From NCBI GenBank assembly GCA_034521595.1, contig JAXHMG010000001.1, positions 1 to 64,000 on the forward strand: a stretch of DNA of 64,000 nucleotides, read 5' to 3'. Of the stretch, positions 3,797 to 61,528 are shown piece after piece; within the stretch, counting starts at the first letter, position 1, and every line of letters begins with the position of its first letter. The DNA is from Gemmatimonadota bacterium. GTDB taxonomy: Bacteria > Gemmatimonadota > Gemmatimonadetes > Longimicrobiales > Gaopeijiaceae. The position numbers were made by a program, and so were the translations under genes. The notes beneath the pieces were generated by a model. The model was not told the origin of the DNA. It worked only from the letters and a program-made list of their open reading frames with translations, and ran no database searches.

Positions 3797-4183
3797 ATGG
3801 CGTTTGAGACAATGCCACAGAGTGTACTCGCTCTTGGGAGGGTCACCCCTTCGGGAGTGAGTCTCCTCGGGACGTGCTTCGCCCTGGGAGGCAATCGTTT
3901 GGCGACCAGCCGACACGTCGTGGGGACGTCGGATGAGAACCTCGTCCTCGTTATGCCGAAGCACCGCACCGCTTTCGAGTATCAGGACACGAGCGACACG
4001 CAGCTCAACTTGATGGCGGCGACAATTCAAGCAGCTGACCCGGTGCGAGACATCTGCATCCTGTCGATCGGCGGGAACAGCACCATTCCCTACCGGCTAG
4101 GTAGTTCCGACGATGCCCCGCCAAGAACCCCGATTGTCACCTTTGGCTTCCCCCACGCCGATCACGGGCGCTTGGTTCTCACT
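3797..4183 (+). pseudogene. Truncated trypsin-like serine protease cassette gene
   Basis: LGTCFALGG..ATSRHVV (His), RDICIL (Asp), TFGFP; no catalytic GxSG; runs into the nitrilase remnant. Confidence 0.6.
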
Positions 4184-6708: not shown

Positions 6709-6908
6709 GACATGCGCCTTCGGGCTGAAGTTGGTGCTCCGAAGGCGAGGAGGGTTGGGGTAAGCAGGTCACGCAGGAAGAAACCGATTTATGGAATCAC
6801 CGCGGTCGACAGCGAGAAACAGGACACGCGGTTGGCCAACCGGGAGCTGCAATGGCATGCGGATCAGATCCTGGCCGGACATCTCGAGGGAGACGTCTGC
6901 GAGGTCAG

Positions 6909-8216
6909 ATGGAGCCAACCACTTCGTGCCTGCCACGACCACCACTCCTCTTGCCGCTACTTGCCGTTGGCCTCGTCGCGGGGTGTGTCGAGAGCGCTGC
7001 GCCGACGCTCGAGCCCGCCGTCAGGGACTCGGCCGGAGCCGTGATCCACGAGTTTCCGGCCGGTGTCCTCGAGCGTCCTCCATCTTTCCGGCTCGCGGAT
7101 GCTCCGAGCGTTCGGATTGGAGTCGTCGAGGGCGCACCCGCCTACCAATGGACTCGACCGGTAGCCGCGGCCAGGCTGTCCGACGGCGGGTTCGCGGTGC
7201 TCGAGCAGGTTCCCGCCGAGGTTCGCGTGTTCGATCCGTCCGGGCAGTTCCTCCGTCGAGTAGGCCGAGGGGGAGATGGGCCCGGGGAGTTCAGTTCCCC
7301 CGTCGGACTCGGAGTCCTTGCCGGCGACACGATTGTCGTTTGGGACGAAGGTGCCCGGCGATTGAGCTGGTTTTCGACCGAAGGAACTTTGGAGCGTGAG
7401 CTGACCCTTCGAGAGCCGGGGGGAATCCGGAGGATACGCCGTGTGACACCATCACCGAATGGCGGTGCCCTGGTGCTCGGGGCGACGACGACGGAGGAGG
7501 ACCTGGGCAACCGGGGAAGGGTCCGCGAGACGTGGGAGGTCGTGCCGGTCGGGCCACGAGGCGATGTAGGTCGATCCATCGGAGCGATTCGTGGAACGGA
7601 ACGAGCCATTCAGATCCAAGGGTCGGGCACGGGTGAGGTCGTGTCGGTCAGCGTTCAGGGGCGCTGGTGGTGGGGCGAGGGATTCGCTTGGGCCTCGGAG
7701 CGCGGCGTATGGACGGCAGACCAGCTCTCGTTCGAGGCTCGGCACTTCGATCTCGAGCGGGGCTTGGACCGGATCGTGCGGGTCGCGGCCGAGGACCGAC
7801 TTTTCACGAGTGCCCTGATCGACTCTCTGCACCGGGTTGAGCTGGATCGGGTGGCTGATCCGGAGCTCCGAGCGCTCTGGCGGGCTGACTTCGAGGAACG
7901 AGAATATCCGCGAAGCGTCCCTCCGGTAGCTTCGATATTCGCGGATGTCGTGGGTCGGGTCTGGATCGGCCTGACCGACCCGCCCCCGGAACGCCTCCCA
8001 TCCGGTGAACTATCGGCCGTGCGCCGATGGGCGGTATTCGAAGAGGACACCGCAGCGGGCCCAGGGGCCGCGACGTCGCTCACGCCGCTCGGGGTCGTGG
8101 TGTTGCCCCCGAGAAGCCATCCGCTCTGGGCGAGTGGGGACGGCGTACTCCTGGTGAGGAATGACACGCAACTGGATGTGCCCTACATCGAGTGGTATCC
8201 GTACGTCGACGGATGA
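6909..8216 (+). CDS. 6-bladed beta-propeller-type lipoprotein
   Basis: Lipobox VAGC, RDSAG, GRGGDGPGEF; paralogous to the genes at 14783, 17933 and 25751. Confidence 0.7.
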   Translation: MEPTTSCLPRPPLLLPLLAVGLVAGCVESAAPTLEPAVRDSAGAVIHEFPAGVLERPPSFRLADAPSVRIGVVEGAPAYQWTRPVAAARLSDGGFAVLEQVPAEVRVFDPSGQFLRRVGRGGDGPGEFSSPVGLGVLAGDTIVVWDEGARRLSWFSTEGTLERELTLREPGGIRRIRRVTPSPNGGALVLGATTTEEDLGNRGRVRETWEVVPVGPRGDVGRSIGAIRGTERAIQIQGSGTGEVVSVSVQGRWWWGEGFAWASERGVWTADQLSFEARHFDLERGLDRIVRVAAEDRLFTSALIDSLHRVELDRVADPELRALWRADFEEREYPRSVPPVASIFADVVGRVWIGLTDPPPERLPSGELSAVRRWAVFEEDTAAGPGAATSLTPLGVVVLPPRSHPLWASGDGVLLVRNDTQLDVPYIEWYPYVDG

Positions 8217-48517: not shown

Positions 48518-50107
48518 ATGAACGTCTCACGCCTACTGCGCGACCTCGCACGCCCGGACGCCTACCCGCATCCGGCCCCCGACGTCGAGGTACTACAGAC
48601 CCATATCTCCGTCGTCGCATTGGCAGGAGCCTACGCGTACAAGGTGAAGAAGCCGGTCGACCTCGGCTTCCTGGACTTCAGCACGCTCGAGAAGCGCCTC
48701 TACGACTGCCAGGAGGAGGTGCGCTTGAACCGCCGGCTGGCCGGGGACGTCTACCTTGGCGTGGTGCCCCTCGTCGAGTCCGACGAACACCTGACCGTCG
48801 AGGGCTCGGGTACGGCGGTGGAATACGCCGTCAAGATGGAACGCCTCCCGCCGGATGCGACGCTGCTCGAGCACCTCGAGAACGGCACCCTTGAAGCAGA
48901 CACGCTGCGCACGCTCGCCCACCGTATCGCGGCCTTCCACGCGGAGGCCGCCTCGGGGCCAGACATCGCACGTTACGGGGAATGGAGCGTCGTGGCCGGC
49001 AACGCCCGTGAAAACCTGGCTCAGTCGGTCGATCACGTGGGGTCGTACATCAGCCGGCCCGTTCACGAGCGGCTGCGCGGCGTGCTCGAGGAACGACTGG
49101 ACGCGCTGCGACCGCTGATCGAAGAGCGAGCCGAAGCCGGCGTTCCCCGCGACACCCATGGCGACCTCCACCTCGACCACGTCTACCTCTTCCCCGACCG
49201 TTCCGCCCCACGGGATCTCGTCGTCATCGACTGTATCGAGTTCAACGAACGGTTTCGTTACGCGGATCCGGTCGCGGACATGGCGTTCCTGGTCATGGAC
49301 CTGATCGCGCACGGACGGCGTGACCTGGCCGACGCCTTCGAAAACGCCTACTTCGACGCCATCGACGACGCGGAGGGCCGGGCGCTCGTGCCCTTTTACG
49401 TGTCGTATCGCGCCGCCGTACGGGGAAAAGTCGGTGGATTCATGGCCGAGGAGTCGGAAGTCCCGGCCAGCGAGCGCGAGACCGCCGCGGAGCGGGCACG
49501 GTCGCACTGGCTTCTGGCTCTCTCCGAGATCGAAGAACCGCACCGCCGGCCCTGCCTCGTGCTCGTCGGCGGGCTTCCGGGTACAGGGAAATCCACCCTT
49601 TCCGACGCGTTGGTCCGAGAACAGGGCTTTCAGGTGATCCGCTCGGATGAAGTGCGAAAAGAGCTCGCGGGCTTATCCAGTGGGAGTTCGGCCAAGGCCG
49701 CGTTCGGAGAGGGGATCTACACCGCCGAATGGAACGACCGGACCTACGAAGCGTGCCTCTCGAAAGCCCAGGAAGCGCTGTTCCGGGGTGAGCGCGTCAT
49801 CGTGGACGCATCCTTCCGCGAGGAAGGGCGGAGACGAGCATTCTTGGATGCTGCTCGGAACCTCGGCGTTCGGGCACTCTTCCTGAAGTGCACGGCCGAC
49901 CCCACAACGGTGCGTGAGCGCATACAAAGCCGGCGAGACAGCGCTTCGGACGCGGATTGGGCCATCTATCAACAGGCGGCCCAAGCCTGGGAGACCGAGG
50001 CGCCCGACCCCACCGGCGCGCGGACCCGGGTGGTCCAAGCCGACCAAGCGCTCGAGCAGGCGGTACGCACAGCGACGGCACACCTGAGCGAACACGGTCT
50101 CGCCTGA
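48518..50107 (+). CDS. Bifunctional aminoglycoside-phosphotransferase-like / AAA P-loop kinase protein
   Basis: QTHIS, HGDLHLDH, IDCIEFN; GLPGTGKST. Confidence 0.88.
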   Translation: MNVSRLLRDLARPDAYPHPAPDVEVLQTHISVVALAGAYAYKVKKPVDLGFLDFSTLEKRLYDCQEEVRLNRRLAGDVYLGVVPLVESDEHLTVEGSGTAVEYAVKMERLPPDATLLEHLENGTLEADTLRTLAHRIAAFHAEAASGPDIARYGEWSVVAGNARENLAQSVDHVGSYISRPVHERLRGVLEERLDALRPLIEERAEAGVPRDTHGDLHLDHVYLFPDRSAPRDLVVIDCIEFNERFRYADPVADMAFLVMDLIAHGRRDLADAFENAYFDAIDDAEGRALVPFYVSYRAAVRGKVGGFMAEESEVPASERETAAERARSHWLLALSEIEEPHRRPCLVLVGGLPGTGKSTLSDALVREQGFQVIRSDEVRKELAGLSSGSSAKAAFGEGIYTAEWNDRTYEACLSKAQEALFRGERVIVDASFREEGRRRAFLDAARNLGVRALFLKCTADPTTVRERIQSRRDSASDADWAIYQQAAQAWETEAPDPTGARTRVVQADQALEQAVRTATAHLSEHGLA

Positions 50108-50234
50108 AGCCGAGTCGCGGCCAACTCGGCTTCAGATCGCGAGATCCCTCGGACAACAGCCCCGTCGTGGAAGCACGGCCGCGCTCGTCATCCACACCCG
50201 CGATTTCGGCGATGCACCCCGCGGGTGAGCGCCG

Positions 50235-50396
50235 TCAGGTCTTGCTCGACGTCTGCACGAAGGCCTGGAACACGCGGCTCACGTTCTCGCTGCCGCACTC
50301 CGAACACTTTTGTCGAGTCTCGTCGTGCTTGGCCATCGGCTCGTCGATCTCGAATTCGTGTCCGCAATCTTCGCAGCGGTAGTCATACATCGGCAT
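50235..50396 (-). CDS. FmdB-family zinc-ribbon protein (53 aa, not in the ORF track)
   Basis: MPMYDYRCEDCGHEFE..KCSECGSENVSRVF; GGAGG RBS. Confidence 0.85.
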   Translation of the reverse strand: MPMYDYRCEDCGHEFEIDEPMAKHDETRQKCSECGSENVSRVFQAFVQTSSKT

Positions 50397-50569
50397 GGAG
50401 ATTTCCTCCTCCGAGGGGCATCGTTCGGCGAATGGACGAACGAACCACCGTGGGGCCCCGAAGCTGTTCGGCCTCGGGTCGACCCCGCACGACCAATCCG
50501 GCCGCCCCTACACGTGCAACCTACTCAACGGGAATGCTTTACGTAACCGGGGCCGGCACATTCACATGT

Positions 50570-50609
50570 AAAAAAATGCCCTCCGGCTCAATTGAGCCGG
50601 AGGGCATTT
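50570..50609 (-). terminator. Rho-independent terminator closing the tRNA cluster
   Basis: AAATGCCCTCCGGCTCA/TGAGCCGGAGGGCATTT palindrome with a T7 tail on the minus strand. Confidence 0.85.
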
Positions 50610-50619
50610 GAGAACGCTA

Positions 50620-50702
50620 CGGAGCGCGAGGGACTCGAACCCCCAAGCCCTTTCGGGCGCTCGCTTTCGAGGCGAGTGCATTACCAATTCTGCCAGCGCT
50701 CC
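50620..50702 (-). tRNA. tRNA-Ser(CGA)
   Basis: CTCGC-CT-CGA-AA-GCGAG anticodon arm, long variable arm, GGTTCGAGTCC. Confidence 0.92.
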
Positions 50703-50840
50703 AGATGGCCGGATCCCGGAAGCCCCCCTTGGGAACCACGGGAGAATAGCCTTGCCGGCCGATCGGATGATACCAGGTAATGGGGCGCGGGGTCCAGCCA
50801 CGCTTGATCGCCCGGCCTCAGTGATGCGTGAATGTCAGCG

Positions 50841-51539
50841 CCGCTTACGCGGCACACCAATCGGGGCGCCCGGATGGAGCTCCGGTCGCCTCCCGGCGAT
50901 CCTCGCTCGTCTCGGCGAAACCCCCTCAGACCCGCTGGCGCGGAACTGCCCTCTCGGCGCCTCGGCTCGAACCTCCGGTTCTCTTCCGGACGCTTCACTT
51001 CTCCGGCCGCTTACGCGGCACACCAATCGGGGCGCCCGGATGGAGCTCCGGTCGCCTCCCGGCGATCCTCGCTCGTCTCGGCGAAATCCCCTCAGGCCCG
51101 CTGCCGCGGGACTGCCCGCTCGGCGCCTCGGCTCGAACCTCCGGCTCTCTTCCGGACGCTTCACTTCTCCGGCCGCTTACGCGGCATGCCAATCGGGGCG
51201 CCCGGATGGAGCTCCGGTCGCCTCCCGGCGATCCTCGCTCGTCTCGGCGAAATCCCCTCAGGCCCGCTGCCGCGGGACTACCCGCTCGGCGCCTCGGCTC
51301 GAACCTCCGGCTCTCATCCGGACGCTTCACTTCTCTGGCCGCTTACGCGGCACACCAATCGGGGCGCCCGGATGGAGCTCCGGTCGCCTCCCGGCGATCC
51401 TCGCTCGTCTCGGCGAAATCCCCTCAGGCCCGCTGCCGCGGGACTGCCCGCTCGGCGCCTCGGCTCGAACCTCCGGCTCTCATCCGGACGCTTCACTTCT
51501 CCGGCCGCTTACGCGGCACACCAATCGGGGCGCCCGGAT
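50841..51539 (-). repeat. Tandem array of four 166-bp units plus a partial unit downstream of tRNA-Pro(CGG)
   Basis: TCGGGGCGCCCGGAT recurs at 50861, 51027, 51193, 51359 and 51525 (the last is the tRNA 3' end). Confidence 0.95.
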
Positions 51540-51598
51540 TCGAACCGGGGACCTCTGCGACCCGAACGCAGCGCTCTACCGGACTGAGCCACGCCCCG
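51525..51598 (-). tRNA. tRNA-Pro(CGG)
   Basis: CTGCG-TT-CGG-GT-CGCAG; GGTTCGAATCC. Confidence 0.95.
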
Positions 51599-51663
51599 AA
51601 ACCGGTCTTGTGGGCCCAAGGCGCGTCGGCCGCTGGGCCTGCCTCGTTGTTTGTTCCAGCAAC

Positions 51664-51920
51664 TCGACCCACGCTCCCGATCTGCTGCGCAGATCGCCGC
51701 GTGGGTTCGAATTCATACTTTGACGCTCTTTCAAAACGGACGGGGTGGGATGGGCTCCGCTTCGCTCCGCCGCGTCGCGGGACTGCCCGCTCCGGCGCGC
51801 TCCGCGCGATCACCTTCCCTGGCCCGCTCGGCTCGACCCACGCTCCCGATCTGCTGCGCAGATCGCCGCGTGGGTTCGAATTCATACTTTGACGCTCTTT
51901 CAAAACGGACGGGGTGGGAT
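51664..51920 (-). repeat. One 169-bp unit plus a partial unit downstream of tRNA-Ser(GGA)
   Basis: CGGACGGGGTGGGAT at 51737 and 51906; body shared with the tRNA-Ser(GCT) array. Confidence 0.9.
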
Positions 51921-51989
51921 TCGAACCCACGCGGGCGTGAGCCCACACGATTTCCAATCGTGCGCCTTAAGCCACTCGGCCACCCGTCC
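51906..51989 (-). tRNA. tRNA-Ser(GGA)
   Basis: CACGA-TT-GGA-AA-TCGTG; long variable arm; GGTTCGAATCC. Confidence 0.95.
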
Positions 51990-52089
51990 AGCTCGCTCGG
52001 GACGCGTCCACGAGACGTTTTCGCTAGTCGGTGGATCCGTCCAACTGGGGTCTTCGAACCCAGAACCGTTCTCGAACTGTTTTCCAATT

Positions 52090-52575
52090 CAATCAACTTC
52101 TCGTTCTTTCAGCGAGGAGTATGAGGCCGCTTCGTCGCCGGTCGGGAGACTTGGGCGCGCTCCGCCGCCACTGGGCTCAGCCCACGCTCCGCTCTGCTCG
52201 CAGATCGCCGCGTGGGTTGAATCAACCTTCGTCCTTTCAGCGGAGGAGTGGATGGGCTCCGCTTCGCTCCGCCGCGTCGCGGACTGCCGCTCCGCGCGAT
52301 CACCTTCCCTGGCCCGCTCGGCTCGACCCACGCTCCCGATCTGCTGCGCAGATCGCCGCGTGGGTTCGAATTCATACCTTCTCGTCCTTTCAGCGGAGGG
52401 AGTGGGATGGGCTCCGCTTCGCTCCGCCGCGTCGCGGGACTGCCCGCTCCGGCGCGCTCCGCGCGATCACCTTCCCTGGCCCGCTCGGCTCGACCCACGC
52501 TCCCGATCTGCTGCGCAGATCGCCGCGTGGGTTCGAATTCATACCTTCTCGTCCTTTCAGCGGAGGGAGTGGGAT
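52090..52575 (-). repeat. Three progressively degenerate units (167, about 153, about 128 bp) downstream of tRNA-Ser(GCT)
   Basis: tRNA 3'-end copies at 52561, 52394, 52241 and 52113. Confidence 0.88.
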
Positions 52576-52646
52576 TCGAACCCACGCGGACCTTTCGGTC
52601 CAACGCCTTAGCAGGGCGTCGCCTTAAGCCACTCGGCCATCCCTCC
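52561..52646 (-). tRNA. tRNA-Ser(GCT)
   Basis: ACGCC-CT-GCT-AA-GGCGT; long variable arm; GGTTCGAATCC. Confidence 0.95.
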
Positions 52647-52688
52647 AAAGCAAGGGCCGTCCGGCGTGGACGCTCCCTGGCATCTGAG

Positions 52689-52761
52689 TTGCCCCGCTAG
52701 GGATCGAACCTAGACTCTCCGGAACCAGAATCCGGCGTGTTGCCAATTACACCACGGGGCA
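52689..52761 (-). tRNA. tRNA-Gln(CTG)
   Basis: CCGGA-TT-CTG-GT-TCCGG. Confidence 0.93.
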
Positions 52762-52765
52762 GCAG

Positions 52766-52837
52766 AGCCACCTGTCGGATTTGAACCGACGACCCCGTCA
52801 TTACGAATGACGTGCTCTACCACTGAGCTAAGGTGGC
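52766..52837 (-). tRNA. tRNA-Thr(CGT)
   Basis: CGTCA-TT-CGT-AA-TGACG. Confidence 0.93.
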
Positions 52838-52844
52838 GGAAAAG

Positions 52845-52917
<73 letters not shown>

Positions 52918-52934
52918 AACGACACTCGGAATGA

Positions 52935-53008
52935 TGGGCGCGAGAGGACTCGAACCTCTGACCTCTACGATGTCAACGTAGCGCTCTAACCAACTGAGCT
53001 ACGCGCCC
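52935..53008 (-). tRNA. tRNA-Val(GAC)
   Basis: CTACG-TT-GAC-AT-CGTAG. Confidence 0.93.
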
Positions 53009-53037
53009 GGTCGTACGAACCGAGGATGCTGCTGCTA

Positions 53038-53111
<74 letters not shown>

Positions 53112-53127
53112 GCGATCGACGATGGAA

Positions 53128-53211
53128 TGCCCACGACAGGACTCGAACCTGTACGCCGTTTCCGGCACTGGTCCCTCAAACCAGCCTGTCTACCAATTCC
53201 AGCACGTGGGC
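53128..53211 (-). tRNA. tRNA-Leu(GAG)
   Basis: CTGGT-TT-GAG-GG-ACCAG; long variable arm. Confidence 0.93.
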
Positions 53212-53270
53212 AGAAGCCTGCATATCCTTCATAGGCCGACCGGGCCGCCCACCAACGGACGGCCGGTGCA

Positions 53271-53354
53271 TGCTCGAGGAGGGACTCGAACCCTCACGGG
53301 GTTTCCCCCACAGGATCCTGAATCCTGCGCGTCTACCAATTCCGCCACCCGAGC
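53271..53354 (-). tRNA. tRNA-Leu(CAG)
   Basis: CAGGA-TT-CAG-GA-TCCTG; long variable arm. Confidence 0.93.
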
Positions 53355-53389
53355 GCGGGCCGTCCTGAGCCTGCGAGGCCGTCCGACGA

Positions 53390-53462
<73 letters not shown>

Positions 53463-53529
53463 TCACGCATCACCTGGTGAAGCCGTCATTCTCGGTGCAT
53501 CGACGACTTCGCTGTCAAATAACGAGGAG

Positions 53530-53603
53530 CGGGGCTGACGAGACTCGAACTCGCGACCTCCGGTGTGACAGACCGGCACTCTAACCGACTGAGCTACAGC
53601 CCC
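53530..53603 (-). tRNA. tRNA-Asp(GTC)
   Basis: CCGGT-CT-GTC-AC-ACCGG. Confidence 0.93.
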
Positions 53604-53658
53604 TGATTGTGCTACCCACGGTGCTCGGCACCTTCTCCGTACGGCACCGCGACTTCTA

Positions 53659-53730
53659 TGCCCCGACGGGGAATTGAACCCCGATTACCACCTTGAAAGA
53701 GTGGTGTCCTAGCCATTAGACGACCGGGGC
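53659..53730 (-). tRNA. tRNA-Glu(TTC)
   Basis: CCACT-CT-TTC-AA-GGTGG. Confidence 0.93.
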
Positions 53731-53744
53731 GTACCTGGCGTTGA

Positions 53745-53817
53745 CAGGCCCGGAGGGACTCGAACCCCCAACCGCCGGTTTTGGAGACCGGTGCTCTACC
53801 AATTGAGCTACGGACCT
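53745..53817 (-). tRNA. tRNA-Trp(CCA)
   Basis: CCGGT-CT-CCA-AA-ACCGG. Confidence 0.93.
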
Positions 53818-53855
53818 CTAGTCTGTCGTGTCGCCCGGCCCCTGGGTATGGATCA

Positions 53856-53928
53856 TGGCCAGGGACGGAATCGAACCGCCGACACCACGATTTTCAGTCG
53901 TGTGCTCTACCAACTGAGCTACCTGGCC
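53856..53928 (-). tRNA. tRNA-Phe(GAA)
   Basis: CACGA-CT-GAA-AA-TCGTG. Confidence 0.93.
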
Positions 53929-54134
53929 CTCGACATAAAAAACCGCCCGAACCATAGCGGCGCGGACGGGATGCTTCAGGTAAGGCCGGCGACTTACGCG
54001 GCCTGCCCCCCCGCCCGCGCAAGCGGGCTCCACGTATCGGACACCGTCAAGAGCGTAGACTGCTTCGGCAAGACGCGGGTCTCCATCGTCCTAACGTGGC
54101 GAGCGCCGCCCTCCGGACGGCGCTCTTCGAACAA

Positions 54135-54208
<74 letters not shown>

Positions 54209-54388
54209 ACAGGGCTGAGAATCTATACCCTGTCGGCGCAAGCGGTCAACCCACGGCGGTGCGGCCCCCTCCTCGGGCCGTCGCTGACGGCCACCTCCCA
54301 GACTGTGCGGACCGTGTGAGGCGTGGTGTCGGAGGTCCGGAAGAGTGCATGTTTGGAGGGATCTTCCACCGACTTCCACAGGTCACTC

Positions 54389-55627
54389 GTGCTCGACGCA
54401 AACTTCATCGACCCACTGATCGCCCTCGGGCTCGGGCTCCTCGTGGGACTACAGAAGGAACGGACGTCGTCCCCTCTCGCGGGGCTGAAGACGTTCGGCC
54501 TGGCCAGCCTCTTCGGGGCGGTAGCCGCATTGGTCTCGATCGAGGTGGGCGGCTGGATTCTCCCCACCGGCCTGATCGCCGTGGTCGGGGTCATGGCCAT
54601 CGGCAACGCCATTCAGATTCGCGAGCACCGTGCCACGCCCGGACAGACCACGGAGGTCGCGATCCTGGTCATGTACCTGGTAGGCGCGTTGACCGTCGTA
54701 GGCACGACCGCCGTCGCCATCGTCCTCGGGGGAGCCGTCGCCGTCCTCCTGCATCTCCGGGAGGAGCTCCGGGGATTGGTAACCCGGATGAGCGACCGCG
54801 ACGTCCGCGCGATCATGCAGTTCGTGCTCGTTTCCCTCGTCATCCTGCCTGTCCTACCGGACCGGACGTTCGGTCCGTTCGGGGTCCTGAACCCCTACAA
54901 CATCTGGTTGATGGTCGTGCTGATCGTCGGGATCAACCTCGCGGGATACGCAGCCTTCCGATGGCTCAGCAGCCGGAGCGGCACGGCAGTGGCGGGGCTG
55001 CTCGGCGGAGTAGTGTCGAGCACGGCCACAGCCTTCGCATACGCCAGGAACGTCCGCTCGGGCGATCTATCCGCCGGGACCGGGGCAGTGATCATCTGGA
55101 TGGCCTCGAGCATCGTCTACATCCGCATCCTGATCGAGATCGGAGCGGTCGCGCCAAGGTTCCTACCGACCGCTGTGGGCCCGATGCTCGTGATGCTCGG
55201 CATGTTCGCGGCCATCACCGCTCTCACTTGGAACAAGGTGGCGGACGCCGGAGCCAACCCACTCGAGCTCAAGAACCCGACGCACATGAACGCGGCCATC
55301 GTCTTCGCCGCACTCTATGCCGGGGTCCTGCTGGCCGTCGCCGCCGCCGAAAGGTACCTGGGCGACGCCGGACTCTACGCTACGGCCGTGCTCTCCGGAC
55401 TCACGAACATCGACGCCATCACCCTCTCGACTGCACGCCTGGTCGCATCGGAGCGCGTGGACGAATCCGTCGGCTGGAGGCTCATCGTCGCGGCGAGCCT
55501 CTCGAACATGGTGTTCAAGCTGGGGATCGCACGGGTCCTCGGCGGTCGTGCGCTGGGGCGGAAGCTCGGTGGCTTGACCGCCATCGGAGTCGCGGCCGGC
55601 CTTGCCCTCATCCTACTCTGGCGGTGA
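54389..55627 (+). CDS. MgtC/SapB-family membrane protein with DUF4010 domain
   Basis: ALGLGLLVGLQKE..AGLKTF, GQTTE, GGVVSSTATA, SGLTNIDAITLS. Confidence 0.85.
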   Translation: MLDANFIDPLIALGLGLLVGLQKERTSSPLAGLKTFGLASLFGAVAALVSIEVGGWILPTGLIAVVGVMAIGNAIQIREHRATPGQTTEVAILVMYLVGALTVVGTTAVAIVLGGAVAVLLHLREELRGLVTRMSDRDVRAIMQFVLVSLVILPVLPDRTFGPFGVLNPYNIWLMVVLIVGINLAGYAAFRWLSSRSGTAVAGLLGGVVSSTATAFAYARNVRSGDLSAGTGAVIIWMASSIVYIRILIEIGAVAPRFLPTAVGPMLVMLGMFAAITALTWNKVADAGANPLELKNPTHMNAAIVFAALYAGVLLAVAAAERYLGDAGLYATAVLSGLTNIDAITLSTARLVASERVDESVGWRLIVAASLSNMVFKLGIARVLGGRALGRKLGGLTAIGVAAGLALILLWR

Positions 55628-55763
55628 CTCGCGGCGCCCGCCGAGGGCGTGACCAGGCGCGACCCGTTGCGCGCGGTGCGGGGACGAGCCACGCTTTCAG
55701 GGGCCGGGCGGACGAGCCCGAGCCAGACGAGCAACGAGCTGAAGATAGTGGAGGATCCATACC

Positions 55764-56108
55764 ATGACCGACCTCGCCGAACGACATTGTGAAGCGTGCA
55801 AACCCGATTCCCCGACGGTGAGCCCCGAGGAGCGTGAAGAATTTCACGCTCAGGTGCCGGACTGGGACATCGTGGAGATCGGCGGCGTCCCGCAGCTGCA
55901 ACGTGCGTTCACGGTCCCCGACTTCGCGGAAGCCCTGGCCCTGTCCGATGAAGTCGGCGCCTTGGCGGAGGAAGAAGGCCACCATCCGGCCATCCTCACG
56001 GAATACGGGAAGGTCACCGTGCGGTGGTGGACGCACACCATCGGCGGGCTGCACAAGAACGACTTCATCATGGCGGCCAAGACCGACGAGCTCTTCGAGG
56101 ATCTGTAA
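55764..56108 (+). CDS. phhB: Pterin-4-alpha-carbinolamine dehydratase
   Basis: [31 protein letters not shown]. Confidence 0.9.
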
Positions 56109-56170
56109 GCGGACGTCACCGGCCGGGTCCGAAACAGGCAACCCGGAGGCTCCCTACCACCGACATCGGG

Positions 56171-57472
56171 TCAAGATCGCGGACGAAGCTCGCTGACGAC
56201 CTGGATGCCGCGAGCTACTTCGGGGATCACGCCCCTCTGCTCGTAAACCGGTAGCACCTGGGCCCGCAGCGCTCCGATCCGGCGCACGAACCAGGCCGCG
56301 AAGACCAGACAACCCATCCCACCCAAGGCCACGGCCGCCGGTGCTCCGATCCGACTCGCTATCGCTCCGCCCCCCAGGCTCCCGATCGGCATCATCCCCA
56401 TGAACGCCATCGTGTAGAGACTCATCACGCGACCGCGCATCTCCTCGCCGACCAGCGTCTGGACGACCGTGTTGATCGAAGCGGTCGTGAGCATCAGGCC
56501 AAAGCCACCCAGGGCGAGCATCGCACAAGAGAGGAGCAGGCTGCGGGACACCGAAAAGACCAGAAGCGTGGTTCCGAACAGCGCCAGAGCCCCCGCGATG
56601 ACCCGCCCGAGTCCCATCACCGTATCCCTCGAGGCGAGGTAGAGCGCGCCGGCCAGAGCGCCGGCACCCGACGACGCCGTCAGCAACCCGAGGGTGGTCG
56701 CATCCCCGTCGAGGATATCTCGGGCGAAGACGGGGAAGAGCACGACGTAGGGGATCCCCAGAAGCGATACACCCGCCAGCACGACGAGGAGGTCGCGGAT
56801 GGGCGCGAAGCCGAACGCGTAACCGAATCCCTCCCGGATGTTCTGAAGCAGGGCGCCGGCTCGCAGTCCTCGCTCAGCCGGTAGGCGCATCATGGCGAGG
56901 GCACCGAGGATCCCCACGAAGCTGACGGCGTTGAGCACGAAGACCGGCCCCTCGCCCCACCACCCGATGAGGATCCCGCCGAGCGCGGGTCCAATCAGCC
57001 GAGCCGCGTTGAACATCGAGGAGTTGAGGGCGATCGCGTTAGGAAGATCCGCCTGACCCTCCACCAGCTTCACCAGAAGCGCCTGCCGAGCCGGTATATC
57101 AACGCCGTTGATGACGCCCACCACGACCGCCAGCACCACAAGGTGCCAGACCTGCACCAGCCCGCCAATAACGAGCGCCGCCAGAACCACGGCCTGTACC
57201 ATGGCCAAGGTCTGAGCCACGGCGACCATCCGATAGCGGCTCCACCGGTCCGCGAGCGCTCCGGCGAACGGGGCCATCAAGAGCGAGGGGAATTGGCTCG
57301 AAAACCCGATCACCCCGAGCAGGAACGCGGAATCGGTGAGCCGATAAACGAGCCAACTCATCGCGACCTGTTGCATCCAGGTGCCGACGAGCGAGATACC
57401 CTGGCCCACGAAGAACAGCCGCAGATTGCGGTGGCGGAGCGCCCTCAGCGCCAAACGGATACGATTCGACAC
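56171..57472 (-). CDS. MFS transporter
   Basis: ALRHRNLRLFFVGQGISLVGTWMQ, GALADRWSR, MRGRVMSLY. Confidence 0.9.
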   Translation of the reverse strand: MSNRIRLALRALRHRNLRLFFVGQGISLVGTWMQQVAMSWLVYRLTDSAFLLGVIGFSSQFPSLLMAPFAGALADRWSRYRMVAVAQTLAMVQAVVLAALVIGGLVQVWHLVVLAVVVGVINGVDIPARQALLVKLVEGQADLPNAIALNSSMFNAARLIGPALGGILIGWWGEGPVFVLNAVSFVGILGALAMMRLPAERGLRAGALLQNIREGFGYAFGFAPIRDLLVVLAGVSLLGIPYVVLFPVFARDILDGDATTLGLLTASSGAGALAGALYLASRDTVMGLGRVIAGALALFGTTLLVFSVSRSLLLSCAMLALGGFGLMLTTASINTVVQTLVGEEMRGRVMSLYTMAFMGMMPIGSLGGGAIASRIGAPAAVALGGMGCLVFAAWFVRRIGALRAQVLPVYEQRGVIPEVARGIQVVSELRPRS

Positions 57473-57579
57473 GTCCGACGCTAACGGGTCGGGGGATGAG
57501 AAGGGAGTGGAGGGTGTGATGCCCCCTCCCTCTGACGCTCGAGCCCGACGCCGGCGGCACCCGCTCCGTCGCGCGAGCC

Positions 57580-57684
57580 ATGCACCCGGATGAGGACGGG
57601 CGCAAACAGCACGAGGAGATGGGCTTCCTCGAAGGATGGGGCACGTGCCTGGACCAACTCGTCGAAATGGTCAGGCGGTGGTGA
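57580..57684 (+). pseudogene. C-terminal remnant of an SRPBCC/AHSA1-family gene
   Basis: HPDEDGRKQHEEMGFLEGWGTCLDQLVE with no upstream domain. Confidence 0.55.
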
Positions 57685-57740
57685 CATCGGCCGCCCAGGC
57701 GCTTCCCGCCACCGCCCCGAGTCTATAGTTTCACCGTCCA

Positions 57741-57814
57741 CGGGACGTGGCGCAGTCCGGTAGCGCACTGCAATGGGGTTGCAGGGGTCGCCGGTTCGAA
57801 TCCGGCCGTCCCGA
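57741..57814 (+). tRNA. tRNA-Pro(GGG)
   Basis: CTGCA-AT-GGG-GT-TGCAG; GGTTCGAATCC. Confidence 0.95.
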
Positions 57815-58736
57815 TGGAGGCCTCACAACCAGACGGTTGTGAGGCCTCTTTTGTTTTCGGCCTCCATCGGGGCGGCCGGATTCGTGGACTCGCCAACAGG
57901 CGAGGACACGGCGCGACCCACGTCGCGCCAGAACCGTAGGTTCGAGACGAGCGGCCACATCAGTCGCTCCCGACCCACAAGCCCCACCGCGAGTCGAGCG
58001 AAGGGCGGGCGCGCCCCCGGCGCGCTCGACCGTAGCTCCATCCGGCCGTCCCGATGGAGGCCTCACAAGCCGACCGACAGGCTCTTCGCTCTCGGCCTCC
58101 ATCGGGACGGCCGGACGGATCCCTTGGTCGTCGATCGCCGGGAAGCACATGGGCCGACGACAGCTCGCGCTGTCGCGGAACGACCTCATCCGGCCGGCCG
58201 GATTCGTGGACTCGCCGACCGGCGAGGACACGGCGCGACCCACGTCGCGCCAGAACCGTAGGTTCGAGACGAGCGGCCAACAACGGTCGCCTCCCGACCC
58301 GACAAGCTCCACCGCGAGTCGAGCGAAGGGCGGGCGCGCCCCCGGCGCGCTCGACCGTAGCTCAATCCGGCCGTCCCATGGAGGCCTCACAACCAGACGG
58401 TTGTGAGGCCTCTTCTGTTTTCGGCCTCCATCGGGACGGCCGGATGGACTCCCTCTGGTCGTCGATCCGCCGGGGAAGCACATGGGCCGACGACAGCTCG
58501 CGCTGTCGCGGAACGACCTTATCCGGCCGGCCGGATTCGCAGACTCGCCAACAGGCGAGGATGCGTGGGGCGACAACGTCGTCCCACCGAACCGTAGGTT
58601 CGAGACGAGCGGCCAACATCGGTCCCTCTCGACCCGCAAGCCCCACCGCGAGTCGAGCGAAGGGCGGGCGCGCCCCCAGCGCGCTCGACCGTAGCTCCAT
58701 CCGGCCGTCCCGATCGAGGCCTCACAACCAGACGGT
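57800..58736 (+). repeat. Three units (240, 325, 334 bp) plus a partial unit downstream of tRNA-Pro(GGG)
   Basis: ATCCGGCCGTCCC(G)A at 57800, 58040, 58365 and 58699. Confidence 0.92.
57817..57857 (+). terminator. Rho-independent terminator after tRNA-Pro(GGG), duplicated in the repeat units
   Basis: 14-bp stem GAGGCCTCACAACC/GGTTGTGAGGCCTC followed by TTTTGTTTT. Confidence 0.75.
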
Positions 58737-58807
58737 CGACGCACACCCGTCCGCACGATAGCGTGTGAAGAAGCACCGACTTTTCCCCACCACACCGCGA
58801 GCCGACC

Positions 58808-61528
58808 CTGACTCTCCGCGACGTCTCCTTCCCGCCGAAAGACGAACCCCTCCGCCGTGATGTCGGCTTGCTCGGAGACATCGTGGGAAGGGTGATCCGG
58901 GAACAGGGAGGAGAGGAGCTCTTCCGGCGCGTCGAGCGCGCACGGCATGCCGCCATCCGCCGACGTGAGGGGGCGTCCGACGCAACGCACGAGGTCGAGC
59001 AGGCCCTGGCGGGGCTCGACGCCGAGCAAGCGGAGGAAGTCGTGCGTGCGTACTCCATGTACTTTCAGGTCGTGAACCTAGCCGAGCGGGTGCACCGGAT
59101 TCGCAGGGGCCGGGCCTGGATGCGGGAAGGAGAGGAGCCGCAACCGGGATCGCTCGCGGACACCGTGGAGCGGCTCCGCAAACGCGGCCTCGATCAGGAG
59201 CGGATGCGGTCGCTCTTCTCCTCCGCACGGGTCGAGCCGGTCTTCACCGCCCACCCCACCGAGTCCACGCGCCGGATCATCCTGGAGAAGCAGGACCGGA
59301 TCGCGGCCGAGCTGATCGGTCGGCTCAACCCCGAGCGCACGCCACGCGAGGAAGCGGTCGCGACCGCGACCATCCGTGAGAACGTCACGGCCGCATGGCA
59401 GACGGAGGAGCATCCATCGGCTCGACCCACGGTGGCCGACGAGCGGGAGCATGTCCTCTACTACGTGACGCGCACCCTTTACCGAGTCCTCCCCGCGCTG
59501 CACGAGACGCTGGACGAGGCGCTCGAGCACCCGGAGCAGACCTCGACCGGCGACCTTCCGCCCCTCATTCGGCCGGGATCCTGGGTCGGGGGCGATATGG
59601 ACGGAAACCCGAACGTCGATGCGAACACGGTCCGCGAGACGCTCCGCCGCCACCGGGACCTGACGCTGGAGGCGTACGAGCGAGAGGTCGGCGAGCTCGC
59701 CCGGAACCTGACGCAGTCGGCGTCGCGCGTGTCATGGAATCGGGAGATCTCCGTGCTCGGGGATCGCTACGGTGGATGGTTTCCGGAGACCGACCGCGCC
59801 ATCCCCGAGCGTCATCGCAGCATGGGCTACAGGGTTCTCCTGGAGCTCATCGGGGCACGCCTCGCCGCGACCCGTGCCGACTCCGAGCACGGGTACGCCG
59901 GCCCCGAGGAGCTGCTCGACGACATCAACGCGATCGCCAAGAGCCTCGTAGAGCACGACGGTACGCATGCCGGACTCTTCGGTGTCCGCCGACTGTTGCG
60001 GCGCATCCGGACGTTCGGTTTCCACATGGCCGCCCTGGACGTGCGTCAGGACGCCCGCGCCTTGCGTGAGGTCGCCGCGGAGCTCTTCGACGACCCGGCA
60101 TGGCCCGAACGCCCCTCCGAGGAACGGATCGAGCGGCTCCACGAAGCGCTCTCGAGCATGGAGCAGGGAGACGCGCGGACAGGGCGGGAAGGACTCAGCG
60201 ATGCGGCGCTCGACACGCTCGACGTCTTTCGGGCGATCTCTGAAGGACGCGGGGCGTACGGGGCGGATGCGATCGGTTCCTACATCATCTCGATGGCGGA
60301 GGATGTCGACGACGTGCTCACGGTCGCCTGGCTGGCCACGCTCGGAGGCCTCGGTACCACCGACGACCTGCCCCTCGACATCGCTCCGCTCTTCGAAACC
60401 GTCTCCGACCTCGAGCGTGCGGAAGAGGTCCTCGAAGCGCTGTTCACGGACCCCTTCCTGGGGCCACACGTATCTCGGCGCGGAAGCCGCCAGATCGTGA
60501 TGGTCGGGTACTCCGACTCCAACAAGGACGGAGGCATCGCCTCGGCACGGTGGGCTCTGCAGCGAGCCCTCGAGGGCATGGCCCGAGCGGCCACCCGACA
60601 GGACGTAACACTCACGGTGTTCCATGGACGCGGGGGTACGGTTTCTCGGGGGGGCGGCTCCGTGCACCGGGCCGTCGCGGCCATGCCGGCCGGATCGATC
60701 GGAGGTCGGCTGCGCCTGACCGAGCAGGGCGAAGTCATCGACGCGAAATACGGCCTGCCCCAGATCGCGCTCCGTAATCTGGAGCGGATGCTCGGGTCCA
60801 TCGTGCTTCGCGCGGCGGACCGCGGCGAGGACGAGGCTCCGCCACGGTGGCGGAGCCTCGCGGACACGGTGGCCGGGGCGGCACGCACCGCCTATCGGTC
60901 GCTCGTTTACGAAGACCCGCGTTTCACCGCGTACTTCCGTTCCGGAACCCCCATCGACGTGATCGAGCGAATGTCCATCGGGTCACGCCCACCGTCCCGG
61001 CGGTCGGGCGCGGGTGTCGAGGACCTCCGCGCGATCCCCTGGGTGTTCTCGTGGACCCAATGCCGGGCGATGATGACGGGCTGGTACGGGCTGGGAACCG
61101 GGTTGGAAGCGGCCCGGGCCGAGCACGGCCTCGGCCTCCTGCAGGAAGCCGCCGAGGGCTGGCCCTTCTTCGACACCCTCCTGGCCGATGTCGAGATGGT
61201 GCTGGCCAAGGCCGACCTCGAGATCGCCGGGATGTACCGGGCCTTGGCCCCGGCCCAAGCCCACGCGGTCTACGACCGGATCCGCGACGAGTTCGATCGG
61301 ACGGTCTCAGCGGTGCTCGAAATCCGGCAAAGCTCCGCCCTCCTCGATGACGATCCCACGCTTCAGCGTTCGATCCGCTTGCGAAACCCCTACGTCGACC
61401 CGATGAACATGCTCCAAGTCGACCTACTGCGCCGGTGGCGGCACGACGAGCGGCCGGACGGCGCTCTCCTCGACGCCCTGCTCGCGACGGTGAACGGGAT
61501 CGCACGGGGGCTGCAGAACACGGGGTGA
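58808..61528 (+). CDS. ppc: Phosphoenolpyruvate carboxylase
   Basis: VFTAHPTE, SWVGGDMDGNP, MVGYSDSNKDGG, FHGRGGTVSRGGG, LRAIPWVFSW, C-terminal LQNTG; start uncertain (CTG 58808 or TTG 58868). Confidence 0.95.
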   Translation: MTLRDVSFPPKDEPLRRDVGLLGDIVGRVIREQGGEELFRRVERARHAAIRRREGASDATHEVEQALAGLDAEQAEEVVRAYSMYFQVVNLAERVHRIRRGRAWMREGEEPQPGSLADTVERLRKRGLDQERMRSLFSSARVEPVFTAHPTESTRRIILEKQDRIAAELIGRLNPERTPREEAVATATIRENVTAAWQTEEHPSARPTVADEREHVLYYVTRTLYRVLPALHETLDEALEHPEQTSTGDLPPLIRPGSWVGGDMDGNPNVDANTVRETLRRHRDLTLEAYEREVGELARNLTQSASRVSWNREISVLGDRYGGWFPETDRAIPERHRSMGYRVLLELIGARLAATRADSEHGYAGPEELLDDINAIAKSLVEHDGTHAGLFGVRRLLRRIRTFGFHMAALDVRQDARALREVAAELFDDPAWPERPSEERIERLHEALSSMEQGDARTGREGLSDAALDTLDVFRAISEGRGAYGADAIGSYIISMAEDVDDVLTVAWLATLGGLGTTDDLPLDIAPLFETVSDLERAEEVLEALFTDPFLGPHVSRRGSRQIVMVGYSDSNKDGGIASARWALQRALEGMARAATRQDVTLTVFHGRGGTVSRGGGSVHRAVAAMPAGSIGGRLRLTEQGEVIDAKYGLPQIALRNLERMLGSIVLRAADRGEDEAPPRWRSLADTVAGAARTAYRSLVYEDPRFTAYFRSGTPIDVIERMSIGSRPPSRRSGAGVEDLRAIPWVFSWTQCRAMMTGWYGLGTGLEAARAEHGLGLLQEAAEGWPFFDTLLADVEMVLAKADLEIAGMYRALAPAQAHAVYDRIRDEFDRTVSAVLEIRQSSALLDDDPTLQRSIRLRNPYVDPMNMLQVDLLRRWRHDERPDGALLDALLATVNGIARGLQNTG

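Follow-up and report, generated by a model that had tools for sequence, protein, structure and literature searches.

Several tRNA genes on a contig of a Gemmatimonadota bacterium (assembly GCA_034521595.1, contig JAXHMG010000001.1) are followed by repeat units that hold inverted pieces of the very tRNA behind which they lie. With what does such an antisense segment pair, and to what kind of element does it belong? The first-pass annotation of the window (the whole stretch of DNA analysed, 64,000 nucleotides, positions 1 to 64,000 of the forward strand) had proposed either a conformational switch acting on the upstream pre-tRNA or a guide-like segment or recombination substrate. The antisense segment, our analysis indicates, most likely belongs to the structure of an RtT-like module as one of its strands, rather than being a pre-tRNA switch or a guide. 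The window probably contains four arrays of such modules, a diverged Gemmatimonadota branch of the family at the E. coli tyrT locus (rttR, Rfam RF00391), with the antisense segment serving as a strand inside the module. Decades after RtT repeats became known in E. coli, we know of no accepted function for them.

Module arrays behind tRNA genes

The modules are gene-less units of 166-330 bp that lie in tandem 3' of certain tRNA genes. The window contains the following features:

51524..51599, minus strand: tRNA-Pro(CGG), host of array A, with T-loop GGTTCGAATCC
50840..51539, minus strand: array A, four units of 166 bp and a terminal remnant
51477..51491, minus strand: antisense piece GCGTCCGGAT of array A unit 1, then GAGAG (5' strand of the closing helix)
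51905..51990, minus strand: tRNA-Ser(GGA), host of array B
51663..51920, minus strand: array B, one 169-bp unit and a second unit truncated directly after the GGGTCGAG left flank
51866..51881, minus strand: array B antisense piece ATTCGAACCCACGCGG, complementary to the T-loop and the 5' strand of the T-stem
52560..52646, minus strand: tRNA-Ser(GCT), host of array C
52106..52575, minus strand: array C, a 167-bp unit, a second unit with deletions and two decayed units
52523..52538, minus strand: array C antisense piece (second copy at 52356-52371)
57741..57814, plus strand: tRNA-Pro(GGG), host of array D
57800..58740, plus strand: array D, long composite units with a period of 322-334
57817..57858, plus strand: intrinsic-terminator-like hairpin and T-run between the tRNA-Pro(GGG) end and the antisense arm
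57859..57884, plus strand: array D antisense arm, 25/26

Three of the window's arrays are embedded in a single tRNA operon, with single-copy tRNAs downstream of them. The units of array A begin with ATCCGGGCGCCCCGA (copies at 51525-39, 51359-73, 51193-207, 51027-41 and 50861-75), and its antisense piece with GAGAG appears again at 51311-25, 51145-59 and 50979-93. Array B carries tRNA-end copies at 51906-20 and 51737-51 and a second copy of its antisense piece at 51697-51712; the piece pairs locally with GCGTGGGTCGAG (51832-43, 51663-74). Worn tRNA-end copies mark the decayed units of array C at 52241-53 and about 52106-23. Array D has tRNA-end copies at 57800, 58040, 58365 and 58699, cores starting with GGTTCGAGACGAG at 57939, 58261 and 58597, and fused palindromes ATCCGGCCGGCCGGAT at 58188 and 58521. 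Its antisense arm, present again at 58094-58119 and 58423-58448, spans the 3' part of the T-loop, the 3' strands of the T-stem and acceptor stem and eight trailer bases, and in the predicted fold it closes the module at 57855-58056 by a 17-bp helix.

Modules were carried by 8 of the 12 tRNA genes with the T-loop GGTTCGAATCC in the source genome and by none of the 37 other tRNAs. Across all loci, which had been chosen for holding units, units were found behind 71 of 138 TTCGAAT tRNAs versus 3 of 213 others. A unit opens by reproducing the host tRNA 3' end exactly, beginning at A59 in the T-loop, and this junction recurs among tmRNA genes and no fewer than 11 tRNA species. We propose that in each module the final 15-16 bases of the host tRNA gene, T-loop A59 through discriminator, are duplicated. 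Ahead of this copy would lie a folded and conserved core some 95 nt long; its left edge, GGTTCGA, is the first part of a T-loop. Upstream of the core would come a piece complementary to host-derived sequence.

Probable pairing of the antisense segment within the module

All four inverted repeats described earlier were present at their loci. Complementarity was 16/16 between 51866-51881 and 51919-51934 (Ser-GGA), 16/16 between 52523-52538 and 52574-52589 (Ser-GCT) and 25/26 between 57797-57822 and 57859-57884 (Pro-GGG). The complement in Pro-CGG was also recovered, over a shorter extent than the 21 nt claimed for it: GCGTCCGGAT (51482-51491) forms 10 pairs, one of them G.U, with the tRNA end ATCCGGGCGC, and recurs in 4/4 units. 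The 2.3-kb stretch 50400-52700 contains three inverted repeats of at least 12 nt with arms within 200 nt, of which two are the Ser pieces and the third is the terminator after tRNA-Ser-CGA. We estimate that a perfect 16-mer inverted repeat would arise by chance about 1e-4 times per 2.3-kb stretch and is thus not expected.

The better-supported partner of the antisense segment is sequence within the same module, not the upstream tRNA. This partner is the module-closing tRNA-end copy, as in Rfam's RtT structure, or in Ser modules the T-stem-like left flank of the core. Among 20 Pro/Cys-type modules, 86.5% of cells were paired in the outer helix between antisense piece and tRNA-end copy, in agreement with the predicted folds, and 4 of the 10 pairs varied on both sides; covariation, which had been suggested as a check on the antisense segment, was thus found with the tRNA-end copy. 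In Pro/Cys modules the two strands would close the module, and their helix may imitate a stacked T-stem and acceptor stem. This outer helix is missing from the Ser-GGA and Ser-GCT units. Their antisense piece is complementary to the T-loop and the 5' strand of the T-stem, and its partner would be the T-stem-like flank on the left of the core. The local hairpin that the first-pass annotation had offered as an alternative structure of these units proved to be the predicted minimum-energy fold of the Ser module (z -3.35).

Alignments of the conserved core showed 92.9% of cells paired versus 79.7% in shuffles and 66 double changes versus 19.9, a level that 0 of 500 shuffles reached. When the closing helix was included, 92.3% of cells were paired versus 82.5% in shuffles (0/500 as high), and 11 pairs had both sides changed. 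In 58 cores the GAACC/GGTTC hairpin contained 17 G.T and no A.C mispairs; since G.T is tolerated but A.C is not, one strand folds. Unpaired blocks of 13-15 nt were invariant or nearly so across orders of the phylum, with the remaining core about 60% identical.

The claim that the antisense segment tracks its host tRNA stood in part. Among 65 distinct first units out of 70 arrays, 41 had an exact antisense match to their own tRNA that was longer than the match to any tRNA whose T-stem differs, and 22 had a match of at least 12 nt; tracking was weak in Arg-CCG, Ser-CGA and many Pro-CGG units. The window's two Ser tRNAs have identical T-arms, so their identical antisense pieces cannot discriminate hosts. 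In long Pro-type units the antisense arm follows genome-specific trailer bases (TGGAGGCC/GGCCTCCA in the source genome, TTAGGCT/AGCCTAA in L018 and CTGGGGC/GCCCCAG in L004). The antisense segment would track its host because its in-module partner duplicates the host gene; gene conversion would keep the copies matched to the host, and unequal recombination between units may expand and shrink the arrays.

Proposed relationship to E. coli RtT

RtT units and Gemmatimonadota modules alike follow tRNA genes immediately on the 3' side, share their strand and often stand in tandem. They have the same A59 junction, with the unit starting as a copy of the host tRNA end (ATCC); same-strand copies of this kind were found 3' of the tRNA in the window arrays and behind E. 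coli Tyr, Pro-CGG, Ser-GGA and Lys. The host T-loop GGTTCGAATCC is common to both, as are the hosts Pro-CGG, Ser-GGA and Tyr and the blocks GGATGAGAAC, AGGTTCGAnnCGAG and GCGAGA, together with a short GC hairpin, TTGCC/GGCAA. In Rfam's RtT consensus structure the antisense piece pairs with the tRNA-end copy, as in the Pro/Cys-type modules. The E. coli copies behind proK, serX and the lysine tRNAs, all with GGTTCGAATCC hosts, show the same two kinds of antisense piece, and the piece of Ser-GGA and Ser-GCT, directed against the T-stem 5' strand and T-loop, resembles that of the lysine-tRNA copies. The middle and 3' parts of the core differ between the two phyla, so that the tRNA-like design may have arisen by convergence. 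An additional stem, bearing a variable hairpin, is present in the Gemmatimonadota core, which ends in CCGCAGCTCC where E. coli has the CCCGAAGGGCG...GAGTA segment. Gemmatimonadota modules have a much higher GC content, do not encode CCA because their host genes have none, and, unlike RtT, also occur behind Cys, Arg-CCG, Gly-CCC and tmRNA.

A model built from 20 Gemmatimonadota modules without E. coli sequence (R2) returned, as its five best matches in 15 kb, E. coli RtT copies annotated as RF00391, at full length, coinciding with the RF00391 matches and at 23.6-15.7 bits, with E-values, rough for a home-built model, of 4.9e-5, 5.2e-5, 2.5e-4, 8.4e-4 and 5.6e-3. The model R1 was weaker on RtT (E 0.007 and 0.012, equally rough). 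R2 missed the E. coli serX and lysine copies, and a sequence-only profile of the core (nhmmer) had no match at the E. coli locus. In the reverse direction, RF00391 had no match over 50000-60000 at E<=1 or over 51340-51545 at E<=10, and only two weak matches (20.5 and 17 bits), away from the arrays, in the whole source genome; the E. coli control gave 16 matches, 13 of them above the cut-off. The Gemmatimonadota units fall below the RF00391 gathering threshold of 45 bits. Rfam's RtT model recognises mainly enterobacteria and their relatives.

RefSeq annotates rttR as a small RNA whose start lies 7 nt past tyrV and whose end is that of the following tRNA-end copy, and passages in two papers describe RtT RNA as released from the tyrT transcript (PMC4986893, PMC3318445). 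On this E. coli precedent, Gemmatimonadota modules would be transcribed with their tRNAs and cut out by tRNA end-processing enzymes, and the product may be a separate small RNA with a tRNA-like end. Among contigs from RNA libraries of relatives, which may contain DNA, one spans Ser-GGA, one unit and Pro-CGG; no transcript ends were visible in these contigs. The Arg-CCG, Pro-GGG and tmRNA modules lie behind intrinsic terminators, situated between the tRNA and the antisense piece, with no space for a promoter, which argues against an RNA role there.

The RtT design and some of its sequence blocks are thus found in Gemmatimonadota, behind at least 11 tRNA species and tmRNA, and their recurrence with compensatory stem changes argues for selection and not for an E. 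coli oddity. The rules are simple (host T-loop GGTTCGAATCC, A59 junction, host-matched helix) and can be used for finding further members and designing tests. A broader reading, which we regard as quite unlikely, is that RtT-like modules are one ancient element class across many phyla, in which each copy surrounds its conserved core with a host-specific mimic of the acceptor/T-stem stack. Either they would be matured by tRNA enzymes and then serve as tRNA-specific decoys or regulators (in tRNA end processing or the stringent response), or they would spread by an undescribed T-loop recombination specific for A58|A59.

Alternative explanations

Could the antisense segment act on the upstream pre-tRNA by pairing with its T-arm or 3' end and switching folding or 3' processing? 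When tRNA, trailer and antisense were folded alone, the minimum-energy fold did join the antisense to the tRNA, at its T-arm or 3' end (Ser-GGA at -51.9 kcal/mol and z -2.1; Ser-GCT at z -4.5; Pro-GGG at z -7.5), and the Ser antisense stays perfect to the tRNA over 16-18 nt in three congeneric genomes despite a 1-nt deletion in the module's left flank. The switch is thus thermodynamically possible, but a terminator separates tRNA from antisense in the Pro-GGG, Arg-CCG and tmRNA units, each later unit repeats the antisense with no tRNA ahead to regulate, the tRNA is fully transcribed and able to fold before the antisense emerges, and the E. coli RNA is annotated in RefSeq as a separate product, so that we consider a switch very improbable. 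The arrays might instead have no function and arise as by-products when replication slips, or switches template at hairpins, on the palindromic T-arm, with gene conversion alone keeping them similar. Copy number varies among congeneric genomes (4, 2 and 2 for Pro-CGG; 1, 3 and 1 for Ser-GGA), array ends are variable with decayed distal copies, and some module forms are perfect palindromes such as GTGGGTTCGAACCCAC. This origin appears decidedly unlikely against the (near-)invariant unpaired blocks in a core otherwise about 60% identical, the compensatory changes in stems and the recurrence of design and sequence blocks in E. coli.

A further alternative, which we judge unlikely, is that the modules are small non-autonomous mobile DNA inserting at A58|A59 of the T-loop of tRNA and tmRNA genes. 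Folded single-stranded hairpins, like those of integron attC or of the site where phage CTX attaches, would rebuild the target duplex for a tyrosine recombinase supplied by the host or in trans, and the antisense would be part of the recombination site. The single junction in so many tRNA species and tmRNA genes fits such insertion, as do a patchy distribution (9 of 151 sampled genomes of the phylum matched under strict filters), empty sites in related genera despite the same T-loops, tRNA-proximal units that are homogeneous and distal units that are decayed, hairpins that accept G.T and never A.C as a folding single strand would, and the palindromic central TTCGAA with inverted T-stem arms on both sides. 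The patchy distribution and the empty sites also count against our preferred reading. According to a preprint passage, stress increases the coverage of tyrT-rttR in exonuclease-resistant E. coli DNA (10.1101/2024.07.17.603846). However, no linked enzyme was found for the guide or recombination-substrate role suggested earlier. The source genome, 93% complete, yielded no Y1 transposase, serine recombinase or reverse transcriptase, and its four tyrosine recombinases and one IS110-type gene do not adjoin the arrays. The third Xer/IntI-like gene does not co-occur with modules: genome G005 carries modules but lacks an orthologue, and relatives of the gene occur in three genomes of family f3 that have no modules. 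Array neighbours at 93 loci were housekeeping genes, forms with the core inside a tRNA fragment can be explained by deletion between direct repeats, and cores from different hosts in one genome (similarity 0.60) were no closer than those taken across genomes (0.63), which leaves no sign of recent transposition.

Known systems were compared with the modules and set aside. An IS200/IS605-type or REP/RAYT element was rejected on the absence of a Y1 (HUH) transposase (PF01797, 0 matches in the 93% complete genome). Williams reportedly described in 2002 the T-loop sublocation of tyrosine-integrase integration in tRNA and tmRNA genes; islands and prophages at such genes share with the modules a direct repeat of the tRNA 3' end from the T-loop and new copies beside an intact gene. 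An integrase-borne integrative element was nevertheless rejected, since the units have no genes, their neighbours are housekeeping genes and no recombinase is linked; modules differ from islands and prophages as gene-less units of 166-330 bp with no linked integrase and with a conserved folded core, and att sites need neither the inverted copy nor the folded core. The attC arrays and CTX phage attP, which are folded single-strand recombination sites, resemble the modules in their short units, imperfect hairpins, AAC...GTT arms and strand-specific folding. An integron cassette array was rejected because the single IntI-like gene scored 213.5 bits, below the NCBIfam cut-off of 265 bits, and did not co-occur with modules, and because, judged by eye, TTCGAAC and GTTCGAG each fit only 5 of 7 positions of the attC core sites (RYYYAAC / GTTRRRY). 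The 3' external spacer of E. coli leuZ is a small RNA cut from a tRNA operon spacer. Like the RNA proposed for the RtT-like modules, leuZ-type spacer RNAs are part of a tRNA precursor and are freed by tRNA processing; unlike the modules, they are single, unrepeated and without tRNA-end copies.

tRNA-anchored repeat arrays in the window and its host genome

On its minus strand the window carries a tRNA operon of 17 genes (50619-54209); on the plus strand, tRNA-Pro(GGG) stands alone. The inverted repeats that the first-pass annotation had reported at four of these tRNAs are all present: 16/16 positions are complementary for Ser-GGA, 16/16 for Ser-GCT and 25/26 for Pro-GGG. For Pro-CGG the complement also exists, but only as a shorter piece of 10 nt with one G.U pair. 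The inverted repeats are parts of tandem arrays. A survey of all tRNAs of the host genome (3.49 Mb, 3 contigs, 49 ARAGORN calls) placed such units 3' of eight tRNAs: Pro-CGG, Ser-GGA, Ser-GCT, Pro-GGG, Cys, Pro-TGG, Ser-TGA and Arg-CCG. Each unit starts with an exact copy of the last 15-16 bases of its host tRNA, from ATCC of the T-loop, and the T-loop GGTTCGAATCC is common to all eight hosts. Units were absent in this genome behind four further GGTTCGAATCC tRNAs (one Met, Gln-TTG, Leu-CAA and Tyr) and behind the remaining 37 of the 49 calls; a match downstream of Ala-GGC is the adjoining tRNA-Ala gene and not a unit. Units of different hosts share GGTTCGAGCCGAG, CGAGACGAGCGAGGA and the unit end CCGSAGCTCC, immediately 5' of the next ATCC, and exact copies of these three blocks occur nowhere else in the host genome.

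Two perfect 16-nt palindromes in the Pro-GGG array, ATCCGGCCGGCCGGAT at 58188-58203 and 58521-58536, look like fusions of a tRNA-end copy with its antisense arm, following loss of the intervening terminator hairpin. A perfect 18+18 palindrome at 50574-50609, followed by a T-run after tRNA-Ser-CGA, is likely the terminator of the 17-tRNA operon. Small reading frames lie directly after the Cys, Pro-TGG and Arg-CCG arrays on contig C3 of the host genome G000; by eye they resemble an XRE-type regulator and AbrB-type antitoxins, a hint of island remnants beside these tRNAs.

Antisense pieces and the folded core

We classed the antisense pieces by local alignment of the stretch 5' of the core with the host tRNA, which separated two kinds. 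In Ser and some Arg units, the piece complements the 5' strand of the T-stem plus the T-loop, and pairs with a sense copy of the same stretch, which makes up the core's left flank. The piece of Pro and Cys units complements ATCC, the 3' strand of the T-stem and part of the acceptor 3' strand, and ends in GGAT, after which comes GAGAAC; the complement of the long Pro-GGG and Pro-TGG units continues into the trailer and varies with the trailer between genomes. The claim that the antisense segment tracks its host tRNA holds, but unevenly: of 65 distinct first units, 41 show a better match to their own tRNA than to any tRNA whose T-stem differs, and Arg-CCG, Ser-CGA and many Pro-CGG units track their host only weakly. 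In predicted folds, the Pro-CGG and Pro-GGG modules are closed by a helix between the antisense piece and the tRNA-end copy (z -1.55 and -8.39), and the Ser module forms a local hairpin instead (z -3.35).

An alignment of 58 distinct full-length cores resolved three stems.

Stems of the core
GAACC/GGTTC hairpin; its 3' strand forms the core's left edge, which resembles a T-loop
P1, enclosing a variable hairpin
P3, a short GC hairpin

Pairing statistics were computed on 47 sequences. Paired cells amounted to 92.9%, compared with 79.7% in shuffles, and double changes to 66 compared with 19.9; none of 500 shuffles reached the observed values, and the signal was lost when partners were slid by one to three columns. 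Mispairs in the GAACC/GGTTC hairpin comprise 17 G.T and 0 A.C, which indicates that the folded strand is the tRNA-sense strand. The covariation check proposed for the antisense piece gave a positive answer: the piece has a partner inside the module, and compensatory changes preserve their pairing. Cores of one array have an identity of 0.87; between genomes the value is 0.66 when the host is the same and 0.63 when the host differs too, and between different hosts of a single genome it is 0.60. Units of an array therefore evolve in concert, and recent movement between hosts has left no sign.

Comparison with the RtT repeats of E. coli

The tyrT-tyrV region of E. coli K-12 contains three 178-bp units and one spacer copy. 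These RtT units begin at ATCC, with GGTTCGA on the other side of the junction, exactly as the window units do. In the RF00391 consensus of Rfam, an upstream GGGGAAGGAU pairs with the copy AUCCUUCCCC and encloses the core, and our alignment of E. coli RtT with nine Pro/Cys units yielded the common blocks GGATGAGAAC, AGGTTCGAnnCGAG, GCGAGA and a TTGCC/GGCAA-type hairpin. On the K-12 chromosome RF00391 gave 16 matches, 13 of them above the cut-off, at 6 tRNA loci. Behind proK, serX and the lysine tRNAs, every copy contains the 3' end of its own host and an antisense piece matched to that host, and all of these hosts have the GGTTCGAATCC T-loop. In one lysine-type copy, which occurs at two of the loci, the antisense piece is of the kind that covers the 5' strand of the T-stem and the loop, as in the window's Ser units. 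In the lysT-valT operon (K-12 780561-781543), four RF00391 matches have their start within lysine tRNA genes and extend to a downstream copy of the lysine tRNA end; here the Rfam model appears to span tRNA and module.

To search 15 kb of E. coli tRNA loci we used R2, a covariance model of 20 Gemmatimonadota modules that takes in the closing helix and has good support of its own (92.3% paired compared with 82.5%, 11 pairs changed on both sides). Its best five matches were the four tyrT-locus copies and the proK copy, all full length, with E-values, rough for such home-built models, of 4.9e-5 to 5.6e-3. In the same 15 kb it missed the serX and lysine copies. RF00391 did not detect the units at any threshold tried, nhmmer gave no match between the core and the E. 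coli locus, and the Rfam scan of 50000-60000 returned tRNAs only. Because of these misses by RF00391, nhmmer and R2, we class the units with RtT as a diverged variant and not as members of RF00391 as it stands. Our verdict is that they form an RtT-like module family, of a kind known but unexplained. RtT RNA is described as carrying a covariation-supported tandem GA motif (10.1101/2020.02.04.933952). Our literature search found no description of these repeats in Gemmatimonadota, nor of host-matched antisense pieces as a rule of the family.

Distribution, possible expression and origin of the modules

BLAST with one unit as query covered 24 further genomes of the family, a set that takes in G025, flagged unpublished and without a match; 13 of the 24 hold relatives, compared with 0 of 16 genomes in two sister families. 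The relatives occupy the corresponding tRNAs. A motif scan with one genome per species gave 93 stretches, whose records are nearly all titled Gemmatimonadota, Longimicrobiales or Gemmatimonadales, three being bins named otherwise. Their hosts are Pro-CGG, Arg-CCG, Cys, Pro-GGG, Pro-TGG, four Ser species, Gly-CCC and Tyr. Two seemingly orphan units follow tmRNA genes, with the junction at the equivalent T-loop position.

tmRNA genes, recognised by tag-peptide frame and T-loop, that are followed by a module
L057, about 4019-4182, minus strand: tag-peptide reading frame, T-loop TTCGACT, junction between AGCTC and ACTCC
L107, about 6868-6978, plus strand: tag-peptide reading frame, T-loop TTCGACT, junction between AGCTC and ACTCC

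Units stand behind 71 of 138 tRNAs with a TTCGAAT loop, compared with 3 of 213 with other loops, in a count of 351 tRNAs with at least 250 nt of downstream sequence from loci chosen for holding units, the neighbouring tRNAs serving as control. Under strict filters, the core covariance model matched 9 genomes in an even sample of 151 from the phylum. In a related genus, two complete genomes share both the operon and the T-loops, but their spacers measure only 16-63 nt, and a third genus has a more diverged variant of the module design. At L129 (genome G176), the spacers after tRNA-Ser-GCT and tRNA-Ser-GGA hold a more diverged repeat family of the same design, in which the tRNA end recurs in antisense, the core starts with GGGTTGAGCC and the end lies at GGCTGCG, with AATCCCAC across the junction. 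Our covariance models R1 and R2 do not detect the L129 repeats, and the Ser-GGA copy bears Ser-GCT antisense sequence, so that it does not track its own host.

RtT RNA is described as released from the tyrT transcript (PMC4986893, PMC3318445), and rttR in RefSeq annotation is a small RNA ending at the tRNA-end copy. By analogy with E. coli, tRNA end-processing enzymes may excise the modules from the transcript of the tRNA operon. Unless internal promoters exist, three of the window arrays must be transcribed, because they lie upstream of single-copy tRNAs in one operon. In an RNA library of a relative, one contig runs from a tRNA through a unit into another tRNA, a weak hint of module transcription, as such libraries may hold DNA; the RNA runs were contigs making up small shares of the stretch only, and coverage of a unit is no proof of transcription. 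The RNA route leaves unexplained that Arg-CCG, Pro-GGG and tmRNA modules sit behind terminators yet keep the same conserved blocks. The terminators, together with repeated units that have no preceding tRNA, also do not fit the earlier proposal that the antisense piece is a pre-tRNA switch; that interpretation is supported in part, with covarying pairing inside the module, and a switch is thermodynamically possible in predicted folds, but we consider it highly improbable. Replication slippage alone, with the units as its by-product, leaves the invariant unpaired blocks across orders and phyla unaccounted for and is quite improbable.

A single-strand DNA element integrating at the T-loop would agree with the fixed position of the junction, the patchy distribution and the gradient of decay. 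The arrays, however, lack a linked enzyme and no recent spread is visible, and we regard this reading as unlikely. A search of the host genome found no Y1 transposase, reverse transcriptase or serine recombinase; it found three full-length tyrosine recombinases (XerC, XerD and a third, Xer/IntI-like gene) and one IS110-family gene, not near any array.

Recombinase and transposase genes outside the window
G000:C3:34262-35455: third Xer-like tyrosine recombinase, 399 aa, N-terminal extension of about 120 aa
G000:C3, about 1510917-1512125: IS110-family transposase, single copy, Transposase_20 at 73 bits, DEDD domain under cut-off

The third Xer-like gene matches the integron-integrase subfamily best, under the cut-off (213.5 compared with 265 bits), and has orthologues in 5 of 6 congeneric genomes; across 41 genomes it did not co-occur with the modules. 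Clustering of array neighbours in the 93 loci yielded housekeeping synteny only.

Other roles were considered and set aside. Against a retroelement-style primer-binding site, the antisense of long units runs into genomic trailer bases and has no CCA complement. The Rfam scan gave no match pointing to a ribozyme of the hammerhead, HDV or a similar type. The units are unlikely to be coding, the 166-bp period being no multiple of 3 and no start codon being visible by eye, and the units lack the D and anticodon arms of permuted or split tRNA genes. At the loci L092, L087, L112 and L026/L020, tRNA 3' fragments (of the Arg-CCG, Pro-GGG and Ser-TGA-like types) hold the core directly within their T-loop, with no intact tRNA nearby; these forms do not prove insertion, direct-repeat deletion from forms like those at L073 and L042 being an equally good account. 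Upstream of the L092 core lies a frame that by eye resembles a PIN toxin, which suggests that an island had integrated at the anticodon loop and that L092 marks its far end.
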